The translations under genes were made by a program, and so were the position numbers. The notes under the pieces were generated by a model, which made no database searches, had not been told where the DNA came from, and worked only from the letters and a program-made list of their open reading frames with translations. Positions 2,142 to 20,048 of a DNA stretch of 64,000 nucleotides are shown in pieces. This stretch comes from Microgenomates group bacterium Gr01-1014_7 (lineage in GTDB: Bacteria > Patescibacteriota > Microgenomatia > Daviesbacterales > UBA10151), in NCBI GenBank assembly GCA_007376405.1, contig VMGD01000005.1:2372-66371 (forward strand), in the 5' to 3' direction. Position 1 is the stretch's first letter. Each line of letters opens with the position of its first letter.

Positions 2142-4956
2142 CTTCTTTTATAATTTGTAAAATTTCGCTTTGCGAAATAGAAACAGAAGCGGTATTTTTT
2201 AAAATTAATTCTTCAAAATCTTTTGGCCAAACTGGTGCCAGAATTTTTGTTTTATCTGCCAAAGTCAAACCTTTCTCTTTGCGCAACTGTTGTATCTGTC
2301 TTATCAAATCCCGTGCCTTCCCCTCTTCTGCAAGTTTGGGGGTAATTTTTGTATCCAATTCGATTGCAGGCTCAATATTAGAGGACTTTTGATACCCAAT
2401 TAGCTTAACGTTAACTTCATCCGCCAGAATTTTTTCCAACTCATCCGGCAATTTCTCTTTAATTTTATATTTTAGTAAGGGAAGTGGCTGTCTTAGCTTA
2501 ATACCGTCTTCTTTTCTTTTAGCATGAGCCTTTTCCGCTATTTCCCTGACTATCCCCATCTCTCCTATTAACTCTTCATCTAGCATATTTTTATTACCAG
2601 TTGGGTAATCTTGTAGATGTACCGATTCTCTATCGGTTAAACTGCGGTAAATTTCTTCAGCTAAAAATGGGGTGAAAGGGGCCAGAAGTTTGGATAAAGT
2701 CAGCAAAACCTCATACATTACCGATAAACAGGTATTTCTGTCTTCACTGTCTGCTTCCGGGCCAACCCGATCCCTTGATCTTCTTATATACCAGGTAGAA
2801 AAATCCGAAACTACAAAATCCTCAATCGCACGGGAAGAATTGTAAGCATCATATTTTTCTAAACCATCATTTACCTTTAATACAACTTCACTAAGTCTTG
2901 CCAAAATCCATTTATCTAAAATGCTTAAAGTCCGTTTTTCTTCATCTTTCCAATTTGAGATCATTGCATAGTCAACAAAAAATTTATAACAATTCCAAAA
3001 AATCAAGTTAAATCTTCTGTGTTTTTCTAAGAGATGTTCTTTTGAAAAAAGATAATTCCCCCCTGCCGGAGCTTGTGTATACATATACCATCTCATTGTA
3101 TCTGCTCCGCTGATTGAAAACATTTCCATCGGGTCCACAATGTTACCTTTTGATTTGCTCATTTTCTGTCCTTTATCATCCAAAATTAGCCCAGTGGAGA
3201 TAACATTTTTGAAAGGGGATGGGGGAGTATCACCCAAAAGCATAGCTTCTGCCATCAAGGTAAAAAACCAACCTCGAGTTTGGTCAATACCCTCAACTAT
3301 ATAATCTGCAGGATACCACTGCTTGTAAATATCCTCATTCTCAAAAGGGAAGTGCCATTGGGCAAATGGCATGGCCCCGGAATCCATCCAAACGTCAGCA
3401 ACATCCTCAATTCTTTTCATTTCTTCTTCACAATCCGGGCATTTAAAAATAACCTGATCTATAAACGGCCTATGTAAATCTTCAAGTACCTCTCCCCCAA
3501 ATTCCCTAATTTCCCCAACCCCCCCTATTACCCTAATATGCCCTTTTGAGCATTGCCAAATAGGAAGCGGTGTCCCCCAAAACCTATTTCTTGAAATATT
3601 CCAATCAATTAAAGTTTCCAGCCAATTTTTCATTCTTCCGTTTTTGACTACTTTAGGAACCCAGTTAATTTTTTGGTTATCTTCCAAAAGTTTCTCTTTA
3701 ACAGCAGTAGTTTTTATAAACCAGGAATCAAGAGCATAGTAAAGAATCGGTGTGTCACATCTCCAACAAAAAGGGTAAGTATGTTTTATTGTTTCTGCAT
3801 TATTATAGAGTAATTTTCTTTTTCTTAGATTATCTATTATTTTGGGATCTGCTTCTTTCACGAACAAACCAGCAAAATCAGTTACTTCCTCAACAAACTC
3901 GCCTTTTGTATTTACTAAATGTTTCATTGGAAGGTCTAGTGTCTTGCCCAGCTTAAAGTCATCTTCTCCATACATAACAGCCGTATGGACAATACCGGTT
4001 CCTTCTTCCAGTGACACAAAGTCAGCAGGATAAACTTGATAAGCTCTTTCATTATCTGAAAAGAAATCGAATAGAGGTTTATATTTTTTCCCAATAAGAT
4101 CACTACCTTTAAATTCAACATTATCTTTTGTACTTTCAGGTACACCCAAAGTGTGACCCTTGGAATAAATTAATGTTTCACCTTTCACATGTCCTTTAAC
4201 ATAGTAAGCGTCCGGGTTTACCACTAATGCTACGTTACCTGGTAGTGTCCATGGAGTTGTTGTCCAAGCTAAAAGGTAGGTACCTGGCTCATCTTCCAAT
4301 TCAAACTTTACATAAACAGAAGGGTCTTCAACATCATCCTTGTAACCTAGCGCCAGTTCATGTGAGGATAAAGAAGTGCCGCAACGAGGACAATATGGCA
4401 CAACTTTATAATCTTTATAAAGCAATCCCTTTTTGTAAACCTCGCTTAAAAACCACCAGACGCTTTCAATATAATTATTGTCATAAGTAACATAAGCGCT
4501 GTCAAAATCTATCCAGAAACCAATCCTTTTTGTTAAATTAATCCAATCATCAACATATTTGAAAACAGATTCCTTACATTTCTGGTTAAAAAATTTTATA
4601 GACTCAAACTCCGTATCTTTCAAAACCAGAATGTCTTGTTTTCCTTTTAACCCCAACTCTTTTTCAACTTCTATCTCTACAGGTAAGCCATGTGTATCCC
4701 AGCCAGCCCGGCGCTCTACCAAAAAACCTTTCATTGATCTAAATCGCAAAATTAAATCTTTAAGGGAACGTTGCAAAACATGACCCATGTGGGGTTTACC
4801 ATTTGCAGTAGGTGGTCCTTCATACCAGACAAATCTAACTTTACCCTTGCGGTTTTCTATAGATTTTTCAAAAATTTTATTTTCTTCCCAAAACTTTAAT
4901 ATTTCCTCCTCTAAAGAGGGAAGATTAACTTGTGCCGAGACCGGTTTGAAACTCAT
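2119..4956 (-). CDS. ileS: Isoleucyl-tRNA synthetase (Thermus-like / type 2 form)
   Basis: 945 aa with the class I HIGH region YEGPPTANGKPHMGH, the KMSKS motif (KMSKSKGN) and the editing-domain motif WTTTPWTLPGNVALVVNPD characteristic of IleRS. Confidence 0.8.
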   Translation of the reverse strand: MSFKPVSAQVNLPSLEEEILKFWEENKIFEKSIENRKGKVRFVWYEGPPTANGKPHMGHVLQRSLKDLILRFRSMKGFLVERRAGWDTHGLPVEIEVEKELGLKGKQDILVLKDTEFESIKFFNQKCKESVFKYVDDWINLTKRIGFWIDFDSAYVTYDNNYIESVWWFLSEVYKKGLLYKDYKVVPYCPRCGTSLSSHELALGYKDDVEDPSVYVKFELEDEPGTYLLAWTTTPWTLPGNVALVVNPDAYYVKGHVKGETLIYSKGHTLGVPESTKDNVEFKGSDLIGKKYKPLFDFFSDNERAYQVYPADFVSLEEGTGIVHTAVMYGEDDFKLGKTLDLPMKHLVNTKGEFVEEVTDFAGLFVKEADPKIIDNLRKRKLLYNNAETIKHTYPFCWRCDTPILYYALDSWFIKTTAVKEKLLEDNQKINWVPKVVKNGRMKNWLETLIDWNISRNRFWGTPLPIWQCSKGHIRVIGGVGEIREFGGEVLEDLHRPFIDQVIFKCPDCEEEMKRIEDVADVWMDSGAMPFAQWHFPFENEDIYKQWYPADYIVEGIDQTRGWFFTLMAEAMLLGDTPPSPFKNVISTGLILDDKGQKMSKSKGNIVDPMEMFSISGADTMRWYMYTQAPAGGNYLFSKEHLLEKHRRFNLIFWNCYKFFVDYAMISNWKDEEKRTLSILDKWILARLSEVVLKVNDGLEKYDAYNSSRAIEDFVVSDFSTWYIRRSRDRVGPEADSEDRNTCLSVMYEVLLTLSKLLAPFTPFLAEEIYRSLTDRESVHLQDYPTGNKNMLDEELIGEMGIVREIAEKAHAKRKEDGIKLRQPLPLLKYKIKEKLPDELEKILADEVNVKLIGYQKSSNIEPAIELDTKITPKLAEEGKARDLIRQIQQLRKEKGLTLADKTKILAPVWPKDFEELILKNTASVSISQSEILQIIKEDEDSKGS

Positions 4957-13938: not shown

Positions 13939-14523
13939 TTACACTTTTGCCTTTATCCTAAAAACAGCTGATAGAATTATATGCTTTTTGGGACTTAAGG
14001 CTTCAGATGAAACTTCTTCAATTTCAGATACAAGATCTAATACTTTAATACTTTTAACCCTTGATTGCAAAAATCTGCTCAAAAAAAGATTGCCTCCAAT
14101 ACTTCCGGGCATCCCCTTAAACTCAGTTGCTGCCAGACCTTGAGAATCCAAATACTCACAAAATTTGTTTATACTCACTCCGGAATCTACCTCAATTAAA
14201 GCCTCTTCCACGCCAATTCCAAATTTGGAAACTTTTCCTTTCACGGAGACAGTCTTGATATTTTTGGTCCTGTTTTTAATAACCAGTCCGGCAAATCCAT
14301 GATCGGAAATCAAAATTTTGCTGCCGGTGCCAAAAATAAAAAAGAGTAGTTTAAGTTGTCTGCACATCTCAATAATTTTGATAAGTTCCGGGACGGTGAA
14401 AGCTATAAAAAATAAAGAGACAGGCCCTCCCGCGTTTAAAGCGGTATAATCTCTTAAAGGCTCGTTAAATTTAAACCTGTCCTTGCCGAAAGAATCAATG
14501 ATTAGTTTGTACTTGCTATCCAT
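13939..14523 (-). CDS. murB: UDP-N-acetylenolpyruvoylglucosamine reductase MurB-like; unusually short (194 aa, essentially the FAD-binding part)
   Basis: The motifs YTALNAGGPV...FIFGTGSKILISDHGFAG...GMPGSIGGNL resemble the MurB PCMH/FAD domain, and the gene sits between murA and murE. Its length is about two thirds of a typical MurB. Confidence 0.5.
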   Translation of the reverse strand: MDSKYKLIIDSFGKDRFKFNEPLRDYTALNAGGPVSLFFIAFTVPELIKIIEMCRQLKLLFFIFGTGSKILISDHGFAGLVIKNRTKNIKTVSVKGKVSKFGIGVEEALIEVDSGVSINKFCEYLDSQGLAATEFKGMPGSIGGNLFLSRFLQSRVKSIKVLDLVSEIEEVSSEALSPKKHIILSAVFRIKAKV

Positions 14524-15748
14524 TCAATACCTTTTCTACAGCTTTTCTATCTGACCAGGGGATCTCTTGTTTCCCGTCTAAATTCATAGAATTCTCATGC
14601 CCTTTACCAAAAATCCCAATAACATCGCCCTTTTTTGCCAGCTTATTTATGGCAAAATTTATAGCTTCCTGCCGATTTTCAATGATGAAACATAGCTCCT
14701 TTAAAACTCCTCCAGCTTTTTTAATACCTGTTAATATTTGTTTATTAATTTCTTTTATTTGTCCCCGCGGGTCAACAGAGGTCACAATAACAATATCGGA
14801 AAGTTTTTGGGCAATCTCCCCCATCATTGCTCTTTTCCCAACATCTCTAAAACCTTCACAACCAATTAGTGAGATCAGTCTCCCCCGATGACTATCGGGG
14901 GAGCGTAAAGTCTTCAAAGCTTGTTCCAACCCATTAGGAGTATGGGCAAAATCAATAAAAATTTTAATGCCACGATTGTTTTTAACCTCCTCCATTCTTC
15001 CTGTTATGCCTTCAAAATTCTCAAGTGCTTTTCGGGCAACTGTTTTATCAATTCCCAACACAAAGGCAACAGCCATTGCCGCCAAAGCATTTTCAACATT
15101 GTATTCTCCCGGAATCTTAAGTTTTAATCTGGCCTCTTTTTGATTTAAATCTCCCTCTATCAAACCAAAAGTGACAACTTTGTTGTCATCCTGAGCGAGC
15201 GTAGCGAGTCGAAGGATCTCTTGATTTAGTACAGCATGCTTTACACCTTTAATAAGTTTTATCTTAGTATTAAAATAGTTCTCAAAAGTTTTGTGATAAT
15301 CCAGATGCTCATGGGTAATATTGGTAATAACCCCGACATCAAATTTTATACCCCAGAATCTGTATTGATCCAGAGCATGCGATGTTACTTCAAGAATTAA
15401 ATACTCGTCCCCGTTATCTGCTGCCTGCCTGGCAAATTTTTGGATCATAAATGGATCAGGGGAGGTAACATGAAATCCTGTGTCATAAGATTTACCTCCG
15501 ACAACAACATTTATAGTTGAAACCATGGAAACTTTTTTACTTGCCTCGCCGCTAGGCGGGCCGGCAGCTTTTAGAACCTGATAAATCATATTAACTGTGG
15601 TGGTTTTTCCGTCAGTCCCGGTCACCCCGATCACCTTCAATCCCCTGGTGGGGGAGCCATAAAAAACATTGGCCAAAATAGCCCGCGGCAAATGATAAAA
15701 ATTATTAATTGCGCTCTGTGGAAAAAGTGAACGTAATAGATTTTTCAT
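14516..15748 (-). CDS. murE: UDP-MurNAc-L-Ala-D-Glu--2,6-diaminopimelate (or L-Lys) ligase MurE; no long N-terminal domain
   Basis: Contains VIGVTGTDGKTTT, EVTSHAL, TNITHEHLDYH, GEYNVENALAA, DFAHTPNGL and GKGHE, which are Mur ligase and MurE-type motifs. Confidence 0.75.
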   Translation of the reverse strand: MKNLLRSLFPQSAINNFYHLPRAILANVFYGSPTRGLKVIGVTGTDGKTTTVNMIYQVLKAAGPPSGEASKKVSMVSTINVVVGGKSYDTGFHVTSPDPFMIQKFARQAADNGDEYLILEVTSHALDQYRFWGIKFDVGVITNITHEHLDYHKTFENYFNTKIKLIKGVKHAVLNQEILRLATLAQDDNKVVTFGLIEGDLNQKEARLKLKIPGEYNVENALAAMAVAFVLGIDKTVARKALENFEGITGRMEEVKNNRGIKIFIDFAHTPNGLEQALKTLRSPDSHRGRLISLIGCEGFRDVGKRAMMGEIAQKLSDIVIVTSVDPRGQIKEINKQILTGIKKAGGVLKELCFIIENRQEAINFAINKLAKKGDVIGIFGKGHENSMNLDGKQEIPWSDRKAVEKVLNG

Positions 15749-15796
15749 TTGAAGCTAATTATAGCAGAAGTCTATCCAACCTCAATCAGGCAACCT

Positions 15797-15834
15797 GGGG
15801 TGTTGTACACCCTTAGGGTGGGTTAGCTCGACAC
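15797..15834. promoter_or_regulatory. Two perfect 13-bp palindromes (ACACCCTtAGGGTG twice, centres 24 bp apart) in the murE upstream region
   Basis: Read directly: acacccttagggtg at 15797-15810 and acacccttagggta at 15821-15834. CACCCT-T-AGGGTG is self-complementary. Confidence 0.3.
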
Positions 15835-15854
15835 CCTTAGGGTATTCACTCACT

Positions 15855-15895
15855 TGGTGCTATTTTGTAGTAGGTAAAAAGTTCTTTGGCTATTT
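15855..15895 (-). other. Degenerate, frame-broken copy of the last ~15 codons of ftsI (3'-end remnant)
   Basis: gctattttgtagtaggtaaaaagttctttggctatttca is ~85% identical to ftsI 16768-16805 (gctattttgtagtaagaaaaaagctccctggctatttca), with a 1-bp indel that breaks the frame. Confidence 0.5.
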
Positions 15896-15985
15896 CAGTA
15901 AAGAAATGAATGTATAACCTGGGAAGTTCTTGTTTCATTTAACACCTGACAGTTTACTGTTAAGTATTTTATGTAACTATACAAA

Positions 15986-16019
15986 TGACAAGATAGCGCT
16001 ATGGCGTAATAATGTCCAA
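15986..16019 (-). promoter_or_regulatory. 34-bp partially dyad-symmetric direct repeat R1, promoter/operator-like, pointing into murE
   Basis: TGACAAGATAGCGCTATGGCGTAATAATGTCCAA. On the minus strand it reads TTGGACA-N17-TATCTT. It is a direct repeat of 16721-16754. Confidence 0.4.
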
Positions 16020-16022
16020 GAC

Positions 16023-16718
16023 TTAAACTCCGAAAAACTCCTTGAATAGTTTATCATTCTCAATTTTAGAAATGCTAAAAATTCTCACATATTCAACAAC
16101 GCCTAAATATGCTCTTAAAAATTCGACCTGTTTTTCACAGGGATAAGCATGTAAGTAAACACTTTCATGCAAAGGATAAAATCCCCAAGCTTTTAAATAT
16201 TCCTGTAAAATCCTCCTTATAGTTTTGAAGTTAGTAGGTATATCATAACTTACCAGCGTCCATTTACCATCCCAAAATTTTGGTTTCTCAACTGCCAGCT
16301 CATCAATAGCAAATTTCAAGATCTTTCGTTGTCCAGCTCCTGTAATCTTTATAGTCTGTATTCCGCTCTCTTCAGAAATTTCTACAAGCTTTTGACTCTC
16401 AAGTCTCCTTAAGGTTCGTTTTAAATTAGGTATATTAAATCTTTTCCATATTTCATATTCCTTCTTCCTTTGATTATTCAAAAAAGGTTTTAACGCCAAG
16501 GGTAAATTTGGCATAATTACCGATGCAGCAACAAAAACACCCATTCCTACAAGCTTTAACACATCTGCTGTACGGGCATACTTATCAGTAAAATTTTCCC
16601 AATCTATTTGTTTCGTTAGGGTTTTAGAAATATCTCTAAAAAGGGCTTCCGGTATATTTGTCACCAAATCTTCTATACACACCTTTTGCTTTCTAGTTTT
16701 TAATTTCTCAAAAGGCAT
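16023..16718 (-). CDS. PaaX-family-like transcriptional regulator (winged-helix N-terminus plus PaaX-type C-terminal domain), inserted between ftsI and murE
   Basis: The C-terminal KPKFWDGKWTLVSYDIPTNFKTIRRILQEYLKAWGFYPLHESVYLHAYP fits the PaaX pattern W-G-W-LV...R..LR..L...GF..L..SV...P, and the upstream KRTLRRLESQKLVEISE looks wHTH-like. The assignment rests on pattern recognition only. Confidence 0.55.
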   Translation of the reverse strand: MPFEKLKTRKQKVCIEDLVTNIPEALFRDISKTLTKQIDWENFTDKYARTADVLKLVGMGVFVAASVIMPNLPLALKPFLNNQRKKEYEIWKRFNIPNLKRTLRRLESQKLVEISEESGIQTIKITGAGQRKILKFAIDELAVEKPKFWDGKWTLVSYDIPTNFKTIRRILQEYLKAWGFYPLHESVYLHAYPCEKQVEFLRAYLGVVEYVRIFSISKIENDKLFKEFFGV

Positions 16719-16720
16719 AC

Positions 16721-16754
16721 TGACAAAATAACGCTATGGCGTAAGTTTGTCAAC
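16721..16754 (-). promoter_or_regulatory. 34-bp dyad-symmetric direct repeat R2 (14-4-14 inverted repeat), promoter/operator-like, 2 nt upstream of the regulator ATG and abutting the ftsI stop codon
   Basis: TGACAAAATAACGC-tatg-GCGTAAGTTTGTCA(AC), arms 12/14 complementary. On the minus strand it reads gTTGACA-N17-TATTTT-N6-ATG, which implies a leaderless or near-leaderless transcript. Confidence 0.45.
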
Positions 16755-18451
16755 TATTCTGTTGGAGCTATTTTGTAGTAAGAAAAAAGCTCCCTGGCTA
16801 TTTCAAAAAAGGTGGGAGCGGCGGTTTCGGCGCCGAAAATTGAGGCAGATGGCTGGTCAAAACGAACCAGCATAACAAATTTCGGATCATCAGCCGGTGC
16901 AAACCCGACAAAGCTGGCAATGGTTTTATTGGGATCATAATGTCCGGCCACCGGGATTTGGGCAGTGCCGGTTTTCCCTGCTACCTTAAATCCTTTTAGT
17001 TTTGTCCATTTTGCCTCTCCTTCCTCAATTGCCGCCACCATCATCTCGGTCATAATTTTGGCAGTTCCCTCTTTTACTACTTGCCTTATTATTTTGGGTT
17101 TTATTTCAAAGCTTTGCTTTTCATCTCTGATTTCTTTAACTATATGCGGTTCCATTAAATAGCCCCCATTGGCAATGGCTGAAACTGCCCTGACCATTTG
17201 GATGGCAGTCACGGCAATCCCCTGCCCAAATGAAGCGGTAGCCAGATCAATTTCTCTCCAACTGCCTTTGGCTCTCAAATCCGGAGATGACTCATCCTGC
17301 AAATCAATCCCGGTTTGACTCCCAAGGCCAAAATTCTCAAGATATTCATAAAATTTATCAAGGCCCAGTTTTTGTCCGGTAAATACCATACCGGTATTAT
17401 CCGAATGAATAATTACATCCTTCATTGTAGTATCAGGATAATATTTATTATTCCAGGTCCGGATTGAAAATCCTCCCAGCTGTATTGGACCACCGCATAT
17501 ATCACACTTCGTATCCGGCGCTACCTTATCCTCATTTAGCGCAGCAGACATAACCAACACTTTAAAAGTTGATCCCGGCTCAAATTGATCCGCCACGATT
17601 GGGTTTTTATAATATTCTTTTGGGAAATTAAAAAACTGAAGCGGATCATAGTTCGGGTATGAAGCCAGGGCTAAAATAGCTCCCGACTTAGGATCCATCA
17701 CCACGGCCGATGCAGCTTTTGCCCCGTATTTTTCCAAACCCTCCTTTAATTTCTGTTCAACAATAAACTGAATTGACCTGTCTAAATTTAGCGTTAAATC
17801 TTTGCCGTTTTTAGCCTCGGAATTCAGAAAATTCCCGATCAAAATAGGCAGACCCAAAGCATCCTTTTCGTGCCGTAGTAACCCTGAAACCCCTCTCAGT
17901 TCCCCATCAAAATAGCCTTCAACCCCGAAATACCCTTTGCTGTCACCCTTAGTGTCAGATCCGACAAACCCTAAGATGTGAGCCGAAGATGAACCCTCAG
18001 GATAAAATCTGCTACTGGATGTTTCAAACCCGATTCCGGTCAAACTTAAATCCTCAATCTCTTTCTTTGTTTCAAAAGAAATCTGCTTTTTCAAAGGAAT
18101 CCAGAATAAATCCGAGGAAAGTTTATTTATGAAATCTTTAGCTAAATCACCAACGCTCTCATCTTCTTCCGCCAAAATTTTAGCCAACATATAACCGGTA
18201 TTGGTCTTCTGTTCTTTTGTCAGGATTTTAGGTTGTCCAAAAAGTAAAAAAGAAGGGTTGGAAGATGCAAGGATAGAACCGTCGCTAAAATAAATATTGC
18301 CTCTTTTTGCCTGCACTTTAATATCGGTAAAGTGCTGTCCCTCGGCCTGAGCCTGCAAATAATCAGCCTTAATGATCTGCCAGAAATATAGTCTGGCTAA
18401 AATGGCTGCAAAAAAAATCAGAAAAAAAACTTTTATCCAGAAAATCCGCAT
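16754..18451 (-). CDS. ftsI: Peptidoglycan D,D-transpeptidase FtsI (class B PBP)
   Basis: N-terminal TM helix, PBP dimerisation region and transpeptidase motifs (STFK in ...FEPGSTFKVLVMSAAL, SDN in HSDNTGMV, KTGT in ..VAGKTGTAQI). Confidence 0.9.
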   Translation of the reverse strand: MRIFWIKVFFLIFFAAILARLYFWQIIKADYLQAQAEGQHFTDIKVQAKRGNIYFSDGSILASSNPSFLLFGQPKILTKEQKTNTGYMLAKILAEEDESVGDLAKDFINKLSSDLFWIPLKKQISFETKKEIEDLSLTGIGFETSSSRFYPEGSSSAHILGFVGSDTKGDSKGYFGVEGYFDGELRGVSGLLRHEKDALGLPILIGNFLNSEAKNGKDLTLNLDRSIQFIVEQKLKEGLEKYGAKAASAVVMDPKSGAILALASYPNYDPLQFFNFPKEYYKNPIVADQFEPGSTFKVLVMSAALNEDKVAPDTKCDICGGPIQLGGFSIRTWNNKYYPDTTMKDVIIHSDNTGMVFTGQKLGLDKFYEYLENFGLGSQTGIDLQDESSPDLRAKGSWREIDLATASFGQGIAVTAIQMVRAVSAIANGGYLMEPHIVKEIRDEKQSFEIKPKIIRQVVKEGTAKIMTEMMVAAIEEGEAKWTKLKGFKVAGKTGTAQIPVAGHYDPNKTIASFVGFAPADDPKFVMLVRFDQPSASIFGAETAAPTFFEIARELFSYYKIAPTE

Positions 18452-18458
18452 AGGAACC

Positions 18459-18755
18459 CTAGCGAATATATTTTATACTCTGTTGGGATGAAAAACCAAG
18501 TTGGGCGGATTTTGAAGATATATTAAAAAGTGAAGAATCTTTGGCAATCTCATTTTCCAGAATCTGGTTTTCCATCACCAGATTGGTCTGCAGAGCTGCC
18601 AGTTCTTCAAACTTTTCACCATAAACTACTACGGTATTACTAACCCAAATCTCAACTAAAGTTAAGACAAACAAAATTCCCAAAGTTAGTCCGATTATTT
18701 TTTTGGGAAATTTTCTTTTTGGTTCTTCCGGCTCAAACTTTTTAATTATAGTCAT
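18459..18755 (-). CDS. ftsL: FtsL/DivIC-like small bitopic division protein
   Basis: 98 aa with one TM helix (IIGLTLGILFVLTLVEIWV) followed by a coiled-coil-like segment, between rsmH and ftsI. Confidence 0.5.
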   Translation of the reverse strand: MTIIKKFEPEEPKRKFPKKIIGLTLGILFVLTLVEIWVSNTVVVYGEKFEELAALQTNLVMENQILENEIAKDSSLFNISSKSAQLGFSSQQSIKYIR

Positions 18756-19654
18756 AGTCTAAATACTCTCATCTTTGCTGATCTCGCTCTCGGATTCTCA
18801 TTTATCTCCTGTGCATTAGGTAAAATCGGCTTCTTGGTTAAAACCTGACCCCATCCTTGATCTTGCCACCTTGCAAAAGTATCCTTAACGATCCGGTCCT
18901 CAAGTGAGTGAAAACTAATAATCACAATGTGACCATTTTTTTCTATTAAATCTTTTACTTCCTCCAAACCTGTCTCTAAAGCACCCAGTTCATCATTGAC
19001 TGCAATCCGCAAAGCCTGAAATACTCTGGTAGCCGGATGTATTTCCCAGTTCCTTGTCCCAACCCTCCGATAAACTCCTTCCACCAAACCAGCCAGTTCT
19101 TTTGTGGTCCTTACTCCACGGGAGCTGACCAAAGCAGAAGCCACCTGCCAAGAATACTTTTCTTCACCAAAATTAGAAAATAATTCATACAACTCCTTTC
19201 TTGTTAAAATTTTAATCAGATCCAGTGCCCTAACTCCTAAACCCGGATCCATTCTCATATCCAAAGGGCCATTCTTAGCAAAAGAAAAACCCCTTTCGGG
19301 GCTCATCAGTTGCAAACTGGATACCCCTAAATCAAAAATTGCACCTGCAAACTTCTGATCCGCCCTGAGCGAAATCGAAGGGTCCGTCTGCTTATTTAAT
19401 AAATCTTTTAATTCTCTAAAATTACCCTGAATAAGCTTGTACTTACTCTCATCTATCCCTAAATCTTTAAATCTTTTTTGCACTCTTTTAAGGGCTTGCG
19501 GGTCAATGTCTAAACCAACGACCCTCCCACCCCGCGCGATTAGTTCTATACAGTGCCCTCCGTCGCCTAAAGTACAATCTATATACCAGGCATCTCGGAC
19601 CGAGAGTGCATCTATCGCTTCCCTAAGAAGAACGGGCTTGTGATATCCTTCCAT
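18752..19654 (-). CDS. rsmH: 16S rRNA (cytosine1402-N4)-methyltransferase RsmH (MraW)
   Basis: MEGYHKPVLLREAIDAL...YIDCTLGDGGHC...FDLGVSSLQLMSPERGFSF are the typical MraW motifs, and the gene follows mraZ. Confidence 0.9.
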   Translation of the reverse strand: MEGYHKPVLLREAIDALSVRDAWYIDCTLGDGGHCIELIARGGRVVGLDIDPQALKRVQKRFKDLGIDESKYKLIQGNFRELKDLLNKQTDPSISLRADQKFAGAIFDLGVSSLQLMSPERGFSFAKNGPLDMRMDPGLGVRALDLIKILTRKELYELFSNFGEEKYSWQVASALVSSRGVRTTKELAGLVEGVYRRVGTRNWEIHPATRVFQALRIAVNDELGALETGLEEVKDLIEKNGHIVIISFHSLEDRIVKDTFARWQDQGWGQVLTKKPILPNAQEINENPRARSAKMRVFRL

Positions 19655-20048
19655 AGTCTCTTTCTATGTTCGCTAAATGCTTTTTCCAAATCTTATTATT
19701 CCAAACCTCAAAATGATCACCCGCGCCAATTATCGCCACATCCTCTTTTACGCTAGCGAAATCAAGCAGGGCCGACGGTATAATTATCCGACCTTGGCTA
19801 TCAAGCTCCACCGATTCGCTGCCGGAAAACAGGTATCTGCGCAAATACCTGGCCCGTTCTTCCGTTGCTGAAATTTCAAGTTGCTTTTTCGCTTCTACCT
19901 CGAAATCTAATATGTCAAATCCCCAAATGCATCCTTCAAATCCCCTGCTTAAAATAACTTCCTTGCTTTTTAACTCTTGCCTGAATTTTCGAGGTAAAAT
20001 TATTCTTCCTTTTCCGCTAAACTTTGTTTGATATTCGCCCAAAAACAT
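19623..20048 (-). CDS. mraZ: Division/cell wall cluster transcriptional regulator MraZ
   Basis: 141 aa beginning MFLGEYQTKFSGKGRIILPRKFRQEL with a second DXXXR-type repeat (SQGRIIIPSALLDFA); it is the first gene of the dcw cluster. Confidence 0.9.
   Translation of the reverse strand: MFLGEYQTKFSGKGRIILPRKFRQELKSKEVILSRGFEGCIWGFDILDFEVEAKKQLEISATEERARYLRRYLFSGSESVELDSQGRIIIPSALLDFASVKEDVAIIGAGDHFEVWNNKIWKKHLANIERDYGRISQARSS

Follow-up and report, generated by a model that had tools for sequence, protein, structure and literature searches.

A truncated PaaX-type regulator gene between two palindromes at the ftsI-murE junction of a Daviesbacteria-like genome

An insertion at the ftsI-murE junction

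The division and cell wall (dcw) cluster of Microgenomates group bacterium Gr01-1014_7 carries, between ftsI and murE, a gene for a PaaX-like regulator that is bracketed by two palindromes, R2 upstream and R1 downstream. We analyzed this locus in a window of 64,000 nucleotides of contig VMGD01000005.1, where gene calls and domain searches place the dcw cluster on the minus strand (Table 1). The regulator open reading frame (ORF) is present exactly where the original prediction, made from the letters of the window alone, had put it, and an in-frame TAG stands 18 nt upstream of its ATG. We refer to the gene together with its palindromes as the cassette. The genome is Daviesbacteria-like (Microgenomates, candidate phyla radiation [CPR]); the closest FtsI matches are from metagenome-assembled genomes labelled Candidatus Daviesbacteria, with orthologues at 68-74% identity. 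The regulator protein has an exact match in European Nucleotide Archive (ENA) ERZ27284378, contig k139_32958, and also in SRR8863434.

Is the regulator gene a regular member of this cluster? We compared the ftsI-murE junction in 12 Daviesbacteria-like genomes with FtsI proteins 68-74% identical to that of the window. In 10 of the 12, murE follows the ftsI stop after 22-120 nt with no regulator gene between them. Because the junction is empty in these relatives, the regulator gene is, on comparative grounds, inserted between ftsI and murE, and the expectation that the two genes are adjacent elsewhere was borne out.

The 3' end of ftsI is present twice around the cassette. The functional end (X) and a second copy downstream of R1 (X') align without a gap over 50 nt at 84% identity (15854-15903 against 16762-16811; local-alignment z ~15). 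In frame, X' translates to FTEIAKELFTYYKIAPSE-stop and the ftsI end to FFEIARELFSYYKIAPTE-stop, with the stop codons in register, and the translation of X, ending in TFFEIARELFSYYKIAPTE and the stop, agrees with the clade consensus. The degenerate copy of the ftsI end described in the original prediction is thus a genuine duplication, but the 1-bp indel ascribed to it is not there. Downstream of X', the CCACCCnAAGGGTG hairpin and the string TATAAT-AGCTTCA-ATG are homologous in five of the compared loci (L010, L012, L014, L020, and L150). Since the native ftsI-murE spacer follows X', X' is the ftsI end that stood there before the insertion.

The two copies also differ in a telling way. X' is closer to the ftsI ends of L150 (91%), L011 (90%), and L014 (89%) than to X of the window (86%), and in the duplicated gene ends 13 of 19 differences between copies fall at third codon positions (p = 0.002). 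This bias, together with the likeness of X' to the ftsI ends of other genomes, fits two alleles that diverged as coding sequence and does not fit a decaying copy. DNA of a relative could have integrated via short homology, or X could later have been replaced by allelic recombination. The insertion point lies ~54 nt before the end of ftsI, and the inserted segment, 908 nt in total, runs from X through the end of an 82-nt spacer between R1 and X'. Either a second copy of the last ~18 ftsI codons would have come in with this segment, or the insertion would itself have created that copy. Because of the duplicate end, ftsI is intact, and X', the native spacer, and the murE promoter remain downstream.

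The junction is likewise filled in L150 and L151, whose regulator proteins are 94% and 87% identical to that of the window. The order in L150 is ftsI, R2, the gene, R1, the spacer, a partly overwritten X' remnant, and murE. L151 is a contig of 1,004 nt that extends from inside the ftsI end to inside X'; it has a terminal overlap of 21 nt, from which X and X' would be identical over ~39 nt there, and 75 nt separate its ftsI stop from R2. The 82-nt spacer is ~90% identical over 58 nt in L150 and recognizable in L151, and no similarity to the flanks of other cassettes was found beyond this group.

Several smaller features were seen around the junction. In L150, a GC-rich self-complementary segment of ~105 nt (L150:2621-2730, CCCCCTTCGCGGAAAACCGCGAG...CCCGACGAAGCGCGGGG) stands in place of most of X' and may be a small repeat element. 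The native spacer of the window holds an exact 13-nt tandem pair, ACACCCTTAGGGT, each unit a small hairpin (15807-15819 and 15831-15843); L012 and L020 have one similar hairpin each, CCACC(C/T)nnAGGTGG. A 30-codon ORF that covers X' (15846-15938, minus strand, own ATG, MKQELPRLYIHFFTEIAKELFTYYKIAPSE) was considered and set aside as fortuitous, being conserved in neither L150 nor L151; at the equivalent place in L154, a 27-aa gene has been called. The ftsI-murE junction of other Microgenomates holds unrelated inserts and looks insertion-tolerant. These comprise an IS200-like Y1 transposase with two ORFs (2.4 kb, L013:5710-8176), a NUDIX hydrolase (L022:4225-4692), a Cu-oxidase_4 (laccase-type) protein (L023:5697-6464), two small membrane ORFs (L027:2140-2837), and 358 nt of non-coding DNA (L021:1257-1616).

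The gene 3' of the cassette is a murE of the short CPR type. It is followed on the minus strand by a short murB-like ORF and then by murA and murF. The murB-like ORF (13939-14523) overlaps murE by 8 nt and encodes only 194 aa, with FAD_binding_4 and without the C-terminal MurB domain; judging by the spacing in L014, relatives may have this short form as well. Both MurE and MurF (399 aa) lack the usual N-terminal domain.

Table 1. Features of the dcw cluster, the cassette, and the duplicated ftsI end (window coordinates)
Feature	Position	Strand	Remarks
mraZ	19623-20048	-	dcw cluster member
rsmH	18752-19654	-	dcw cluster member
Small ftsL-sized ORF	18459-18755	-	
ftsI	16754..18451	-	565 aa; PBP dimerisation and transpeptidase domains (penicillin-binding protein, PBP); Pfam Transpeptidase 1.5e-76, PBP_dimer 8e-22
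X	16754..16811	-	functional ftsI 3' end (last ~18 codons + TAG); one duplication copy, direct repeat D1
R2	16719..16754	-	upstream palindrome; predicted operator overlapping the gene's own promoter
PaaX-like regulator gene	16023..16718	-	231 aa, ATG start; Pfam PaaX_M 5.2e-17
R1	15986..16019	-	downstream palindrome; predicted second operator
82-nt spacer	15904..15985	-	between R1 and X'; arrived with the cassette
X'	15846..15903	-	displaced ancestral ftsI 3' end (FTEIAKELFTYYKIAPSE + TGA); other duplication copy
Native ftsI-murE spacer	15749..15845	-	two hairpin copies and murE promoter
murE	14516..15748	-	short form, 410 aa; NCBIfam murE 1.3e-105; directly 3' of ftsI in relatives

The regulator family and its paired palindromes

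PaaX of E. coli and Pseudomonas (PDB 8a39, 3l09) is a phenylacetyl-CoA-responsive repressor. The protein encoded by the inserted gene consists of an N-terminal region, a hydrophobic segment (residues ~51-72), a predicted winged helix (~84-140), and PaaX_M (148-219). The match to PaaX_M (PF20803), the central Cas2-like dimerisation domain, is strong (5.2e-17; 62 bits against a cut-off of 24), and PaaX_M is matched in all 24 aligned homologues. The profile search therefore upheld the similarity to PaaX, but what had been taken for a PaaX-type C-terminal signature is PaaX_M and not the C-terminal domain of PaaX. Indeed, Pfam gave no match to the C-terminal ligand domain, PaaX_C, and the protein ends 12 residues after PaaX_M. 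The PaaX equivalog model TIGR02277 scores 17.1 bits against a cut-off of 264.55, and no paa catabolic genes occur in any locus context examined.

The Cas2-like part of an AlphaFold2 model has a predicted local distance difference test (pLDDT) score of ~85. Foldseek returned E. coli PaaX (8a39) first (136 columns, E = 1.5e-3) and then many Cas2 structures, which had probabilities of 0.9-1.0 but E values of 0.007-0.3. The Cas2 Pfam profile PF09827 gave 0.0043, below its cut-off, and the SYD motif is invariant in the family. A PDB sequence search with the family profile returned only noise (E 0.24 or worse), and PADLOC and PHROGs gave weak Cas2-like matches only. The family is large, with 2,405 clusters at 50% identity (E 1e-3 or better). 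It includes 476 close homologues at 60-94% identity, and those named by organism are all Microgenomates or Patescibacteria.

Both palindromes in the window are versions of one sequence. R1 (15986-16016) and R2 (16721-16751) are 84% identical, and the 24-nt core that they share occurs twice in the 64 kb even when 3 mismatches are allowed, with 0.00 occurrences expected by chance. A looser dyad pattern, TGACAA-N14-24-TTGTCA, matches R2 alone, and we found neither further operator sites nor a second copy of the gene in the window. R2 is a 14-4-14 dyad in which 12 of 14 positions are complementary. It begins directly after the ftsI stop and reads on the minus strand as the promoter TTGACA-17-TATTTT (score 10/12), with the -35 at 16753-16748 and the -10 at 16730-16725. 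The -10 ends about 6 nt (6-7) 5' of the regulator ATG at 16718, so a leaderless start is predicted. R1 has a weak promoter-like reading on the same strand, TGGACA-17-TATCTT (16018..15990; 9/12). In all these respects (bracketing direct repeats, a 14-4-14 inverted repeat, promoter-like readings of both copies, and an R2 that abuts the ftsI stop) the original prediction held, and the leaderless regulator transcript that it proposed is plausible. On its plus strand (15985-16013), R1 can also be read as a promoter, ATGACA-17-AATAAT (10/12), antisense into the regulator gene; the -10 of this reading is not retained in L151.

How general is this layout? We collected 55 homologous loci. A palindrome of 30-34 bp lies on both sides of the gene in at least 45 of them, in at least 15 unrelated contexts. 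Among these contexts are glycosyltransferases with an amino-acid kinase, YebC with a tetratricopeptide repeat (TPR) protein, a carbonic-anhydrase-like gene with FolC, a ClpB-like gene with PBP2, RecO with glycyl-tRNA synthetase (GlyRS), and pentose-phosphate genes. Upstream flanks with 12 or more of 16 dyad matches were found at 32 of the 55 loci, against 5.5% of random 250-nt segments. The consensus palindrome is TTGACAAA-N-GC-NNNN-GC-N-TTTGTCAA. Upstream copies keep TTGACA, and their right arm reads TAT(T/C)(C/T)T, so that the two arms form a sigma-70-type promoter. The dyad center of the upstream copy lies 16-23 nt 5' of the ATG in ~20 loci, which predicts leaderless transcripts there as well. 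Downstream copies have more perfect symmetry and often read TGGACA, AGACA, or CGGACA; the -35 is lost and GACA is kept. As far as genome comparison goes, a truncated PaaX-type repressor gene between twin predicted operators is a widespread module that is undescribed in our literature searches, in which searches on PaaX with Cas2-like or with Patescibacteria returned no paper on the family. One locus, L107, has three palindromes, two upstream and one downstream (L107:1250-1400 and 2165-2230), and a 26-nt repeat lies 5' of both the distal upstream and the downstream palindrome; this arrangement may be what is left of another cassette that has decayed.

The symmetry of the palindromes is maintained by paired changes. 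We aligned 65 sites in register and compared them with 500 shuffles. Complementary dyad positions make up 80.4% of the total against 63.3% in the shuffles, none of which reaches the observed value, although the paired percentage is inflated because palindromy was among the grounds on which sites were selected. The dyad covariation score is 0.425 against 0.147 in the shuffles, and sliding the partner columns by 1-3 positions lowers complementarity to 37-44%. At each of the 17 dyad pairs, both partners vary among the sites. Complementarity at the two innermost pairs holds in 54 and 57 of the 65 sites. Adjacent bases at the center are unable to pair in a hairpin and yet are symmetric, which argues for a dimer site on duplex DNA.

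The protein changes along with its predicted site. The recognition helix spans residues 96-108, and its NLKRTLRR core (98-105) is nearly invariant at loci with a GACA half-site. Arg101 accompanies the G of GACA in 35 of 35 loci, Gln101 accompanies A or C (L111, L125, L139, L140, and L141), and Ser101 accompanies T (L136, L138, and L142), a pattern behind which stand perhaps 3-4 independent lineages. Comparative support for the dyad-binding winged-helix autoregulator that had been suggested from the window alone comes from the two-palindrome layout (45 or more of the 55 loci), from covariation across the dyad, and from the covariation of residue 101.

We propose that the cassette is probably a PaaX-type autorepressor gene between two copies of its predicted operator. 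The protein would bind double-stranded DNA as a symmetric dimer. Its recognition helix, with Arg101, would read GACA in the outer half-sites, and the protein would touch the DNA again near the conserved C/G at +/-3 from the dyad. Since the predicted -35 and -10 of the regulator's leaderless promoter both fall within R2, binding there would shut off the gene's own transcription. The site bound by E. coli PaaX is TGATTC-N27-GAATCA, and that protein represses the promoter of its own gene (PMC9493321). Self-repression at R2 would resemble the action of this protein at Px. R1 would be a second site for the same protein; most likely it would form a loop with R2 or act as a roadblock and so insulate the cassette from its neighbors. 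From sequence comparison we thus infer DNA binding, repression, a role for R1, and the sensing of a signal.

Several observations weigh against this proposal. Besides the selection of sites and the small number of lineages mentioned above, the two sites of a locus do not always share their innermost 4 bases (L001, L092, and L141), so that any explanation of the central symmetry is a tentative one. The Pfam PaaX N-terminal domain does not match the regulator. Moreover, the winged helix (helix-helix-beta-beta-helix, 84-140) is modelled by AlphaFold2 with moderate confidence (pLDDT ~60), and the N-terminal 95 residues with low confidence. Finally, residues ~51-72 are hydrophobic (Kyte-Doolittle maximum 1.9) within a conserved LKLVGxGxF...PNLPLALKPF stretch. 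This segment could be a membrane tether, which would be awkward for DNA binding unless it is a monotopic or dimerisation helix.

Alternative roles for the palindromes and the duplicated gene ends

Does R1 control murE? R1 had been predicted to gate transcription of murE and the downstream cell-wall genes, that is, to act as the operator and promoter that places them under the inserted regulator. The promoter-like reading of R1 does point at murE and is conserved in L150 and L151, a repressor bound at either palindrome would also stop transcription that continues from ftsI into murE, and PBP genes neighbor the cassette in two other lineages (L147; L106, L108, L114, and L131). Nevertheless, we now think such gating unlikely. 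murE has a stronger promoter of its own (TTGAGG-16-TG-n-TATAAT, 15785..15758; extended -10, 10/12), which is conserved in genomes without the insertion, and R1 is 238 nt away from the murE start. Moreover, the downstream palindrome is present regardless of its neighbor: the next gene is co-directional in roughly half of the loci and convergent in the others, and this random orientation argues that the palindrome is not primarily an operator of that gene. At many loci it lacks a usable -35 or -10. A consistent cell-envelope link was also considered and rejected; the PBP and glycosyltransferase contexts would fit and are a hint only, but the pentose-phosphate, RecO, and GlyRS contexts do not. 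Another option is that the palindromes are not protein sites but nucleic-acid hairpins, such as intrinsic terminators, RNA stabilizers, or elements of the repetitive extragenic palindromic (REP) kind. We give this idea almost no credence, even though several of the downstream copies are predicted to fold into RNA hairpins of high stability (L097, for one, at -20.4 kcal/mol, z -6.9) and a stem would also explain the dyad covariation. The symmetry continues through two central base pairs that could not form in a hairpin, no U-tract lies directly 3' of the palindrome, and the upstream copy is within the promoter and hence untranscribed if the predicted promoter is used. A role as RNA would also leave aside the covariation of the half-site base with residue 101 and the finding that in the 64-kb window the motif occurs only beside the regulator gene. 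R1 itself was rejected as an RNA hairpin or terminator, because its fold is weak (-8 kcal/mol, z -0.58).

The murE promoter has features of its own. Its -10 (15758-15763) ends 9 nt before the ATG in the window and 8 nt before it in relatives such as L014, and TATAAT is kept also in genomes whose ftsI-murE spacer measures no more than 22-30 nt; no Shine-Dalgarno sequence is present. With TATAAT 8-9 nt before the ATG and no Shine-Dalgarno sequence, murE seems to be leaderless. In the genomes with short spacers, the murE -35 must lie inside the coding end of ftsI.

The duplicated ftsI end raised the question of how the cassette reached this junction. A search for gene-spanning repeats in all loci, with the palindromes masked, found duplicated gene 3' ends around the cassette in 3 independent cases among ~55 loci: the group of the window, L150, and L151; L141; and L115. 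L141 encodes a distant family member (41% identical), and its cassette lies 3' of gatB. The last 20 gatB codons (MKKTSGKANAQKVKEILEKLLK-stop) recur downstream as MKKTQGKANAQKAKEILEKL-stop (L141:750-817 and 1527-1589; 61 nt, 50/61 identical). We rejected tandem paralogues as the source of this repeat, which is the gatB 3' end. In L115, a 36-nt direct repeat (35/36) brackets the cassette (L115:1939-1974 and 3086-3121). A PIN/VapC-like gene on the other strand ends within the downstream copy, which covers its last four codons and stop. The flanking duplications are 36-61 nt long and lie 1-125 nt outside the palindromes, and comparison by eye showed no common sequence at the outer borders of the three.

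The cassette may occasionally move. A stronger claim would be that it is, now or recently, a mobile element that inserts at or near gene 3' ends and leaves a 36-61-bp target duplication. Direct repeats that lie outside the palindromes and include a neighbor's 3' end and stop (ftsI, gatB, and the PIN/VapC-like gene) at three independent loci are what this claim predicts. So are the empty sites in relatives and a genomic context that differs between clades. The third-position differences are those expected of alleles from different genomes, the L151 copies are seemingly identical over ~39 nt, and the ends, each a palindrome, are also inverted repeats of one another, as in an insertion sequence, with the promoter in the left end. 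The element could work in either of two ways. The palindromes could be its ends or recombination sites, with the protein taking part in excision or integration. Alternatively, the cassette could be excised passively between the flanking repeats, taken up by a relative, and re-integrated in Campbell fashion via the gene end that it carries. A minimal element in which a dimer bound at both palindromes joins the ends and brings about excision and integration, by itself or through host factors that it recruits, is very unlikely in our estimate; if true, it would make unusually long target duplications of 36-61 bp while keeping the target gene intact. The broader claim of mobility is also doubtful. 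The duplications do not adjoin the palindromes, vary in length, have no conserved termini that we could see, and occur in only 3 of ~55 loci. No second copy of the gene or motif exists in the 64-kb window, no transposase, integrase, or other recombinase domain was found in domain searches of the insert, which is a single ORF, and no family member was found on viral contigs. Members of clusters at 90% identity share one context, and synteny is kept within subclades, so any moves must be rare.

Significance and comparison with known systems

To our knowledge, CPR bacteria have few recognizable transcription factors and almost none with a known binding site. The proposed autorepressor would give an abundant family (~2,400 clusters at 50% identity) a predicted operator and promoter architecture, together with a predicted rule of recognition from residue to base: Arg101 for G, Gln for A or C, and Ser for T. 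Our analysis also shows that insertions are tolerated at the conserved ftsI-murE junction of this clade, because murE can rely on a leaderless-type promoter of its own. Should the 3'-end duplications be traces of a genuine insertion mechanism, the cassette would count as a very small mobile unit that lacks a known recombinase.

How does the cassette relate to known regulators and mobile units? MraZ is a known dcw regulator, and mraZ is present in the window. Like the inserted gene, it encodes a DNA-binding regulator inside the dcw cluster. However, the MraZ fold is unrelated, and mraZ is a conserved member at the head of the operon, whereas the regulator gene is a lineage-specific insertion.

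Among mobile units, the cassette is most readily set beside integrative elements that use gene 3' ends (the tRNA- and tmRNA-type attachment, or att, sites). Both have repeats that contain the target 3' end and stop, here 36-61 bp long, and in both the target gene is intact, the displaced end lies downstream, and relatives have empty sites. Unlike these elements, the cassette encodes no tyrosine or serine recombinase, its insert is only ~0.9 kb, and its repeats vary in length and do not mark a crossover core. The palindromic ends formally resemble the inverted repeats of an insertion sequence or transposon, but no fixed-length duplication abuts them, only one copy is found in the 64-kb window, and there is no transposase domain. 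A single gene between imperfect palindromes, with conserved outer arms, a variable center, and varied contexts, also recalls integron attC and Xer-dif modules. In contrast to those modules, the cargo is always of the same family and covaries with the palindrome, the upstream palindrome reads as the gene's promoter, the cassettes do not form arrays, and no link to an integrase or to Xer was seen.

The C-terminal 80 residues of the regulator are predicted to have the Cas2 ferredoxin-like fold, with LVSYDI and ESVF motifs, as in VapD and in Cas2, the CRISPR adaptation protein. Unlike in those proteins, the domain is fused to a predicted DNA-binding domain, and its scores are below the Cas2 cut-offs. 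Neither cas1 nor other cas families were found among the called neighbors in the window and 6 other contexts, and repeat arrays were not searched for.

PaaX itself differs from the regulator family in several ways. The family lacks PaaX_C and has an extra N-terminal region with the conserved hydrophobic PNLPLALKPF segment; no paa genes lie nearby in the contexts examined, and the score is 17 bits against the 265-bit cut-off of TIGR02277. Its half-site spacing is ~9 bp shorter, and a second predicted operator 3' of the gene is the rule. Nevertheless, both have a Cas2-like PaaX_M dimerisation domain, preceded by a winged helix that in the regulator family is a predicted one, and both pair two widely spaced inverted hexamers, TGATTC-N27-GAATCA in PaaX and, as predicted, GACAAA-N18-TTTGTC in the regulator family. 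PaaX represses its own promoter by occupancy (PMC9493321), and the overlap of palindrome and promoter suggests that the regulators of this family do the same.

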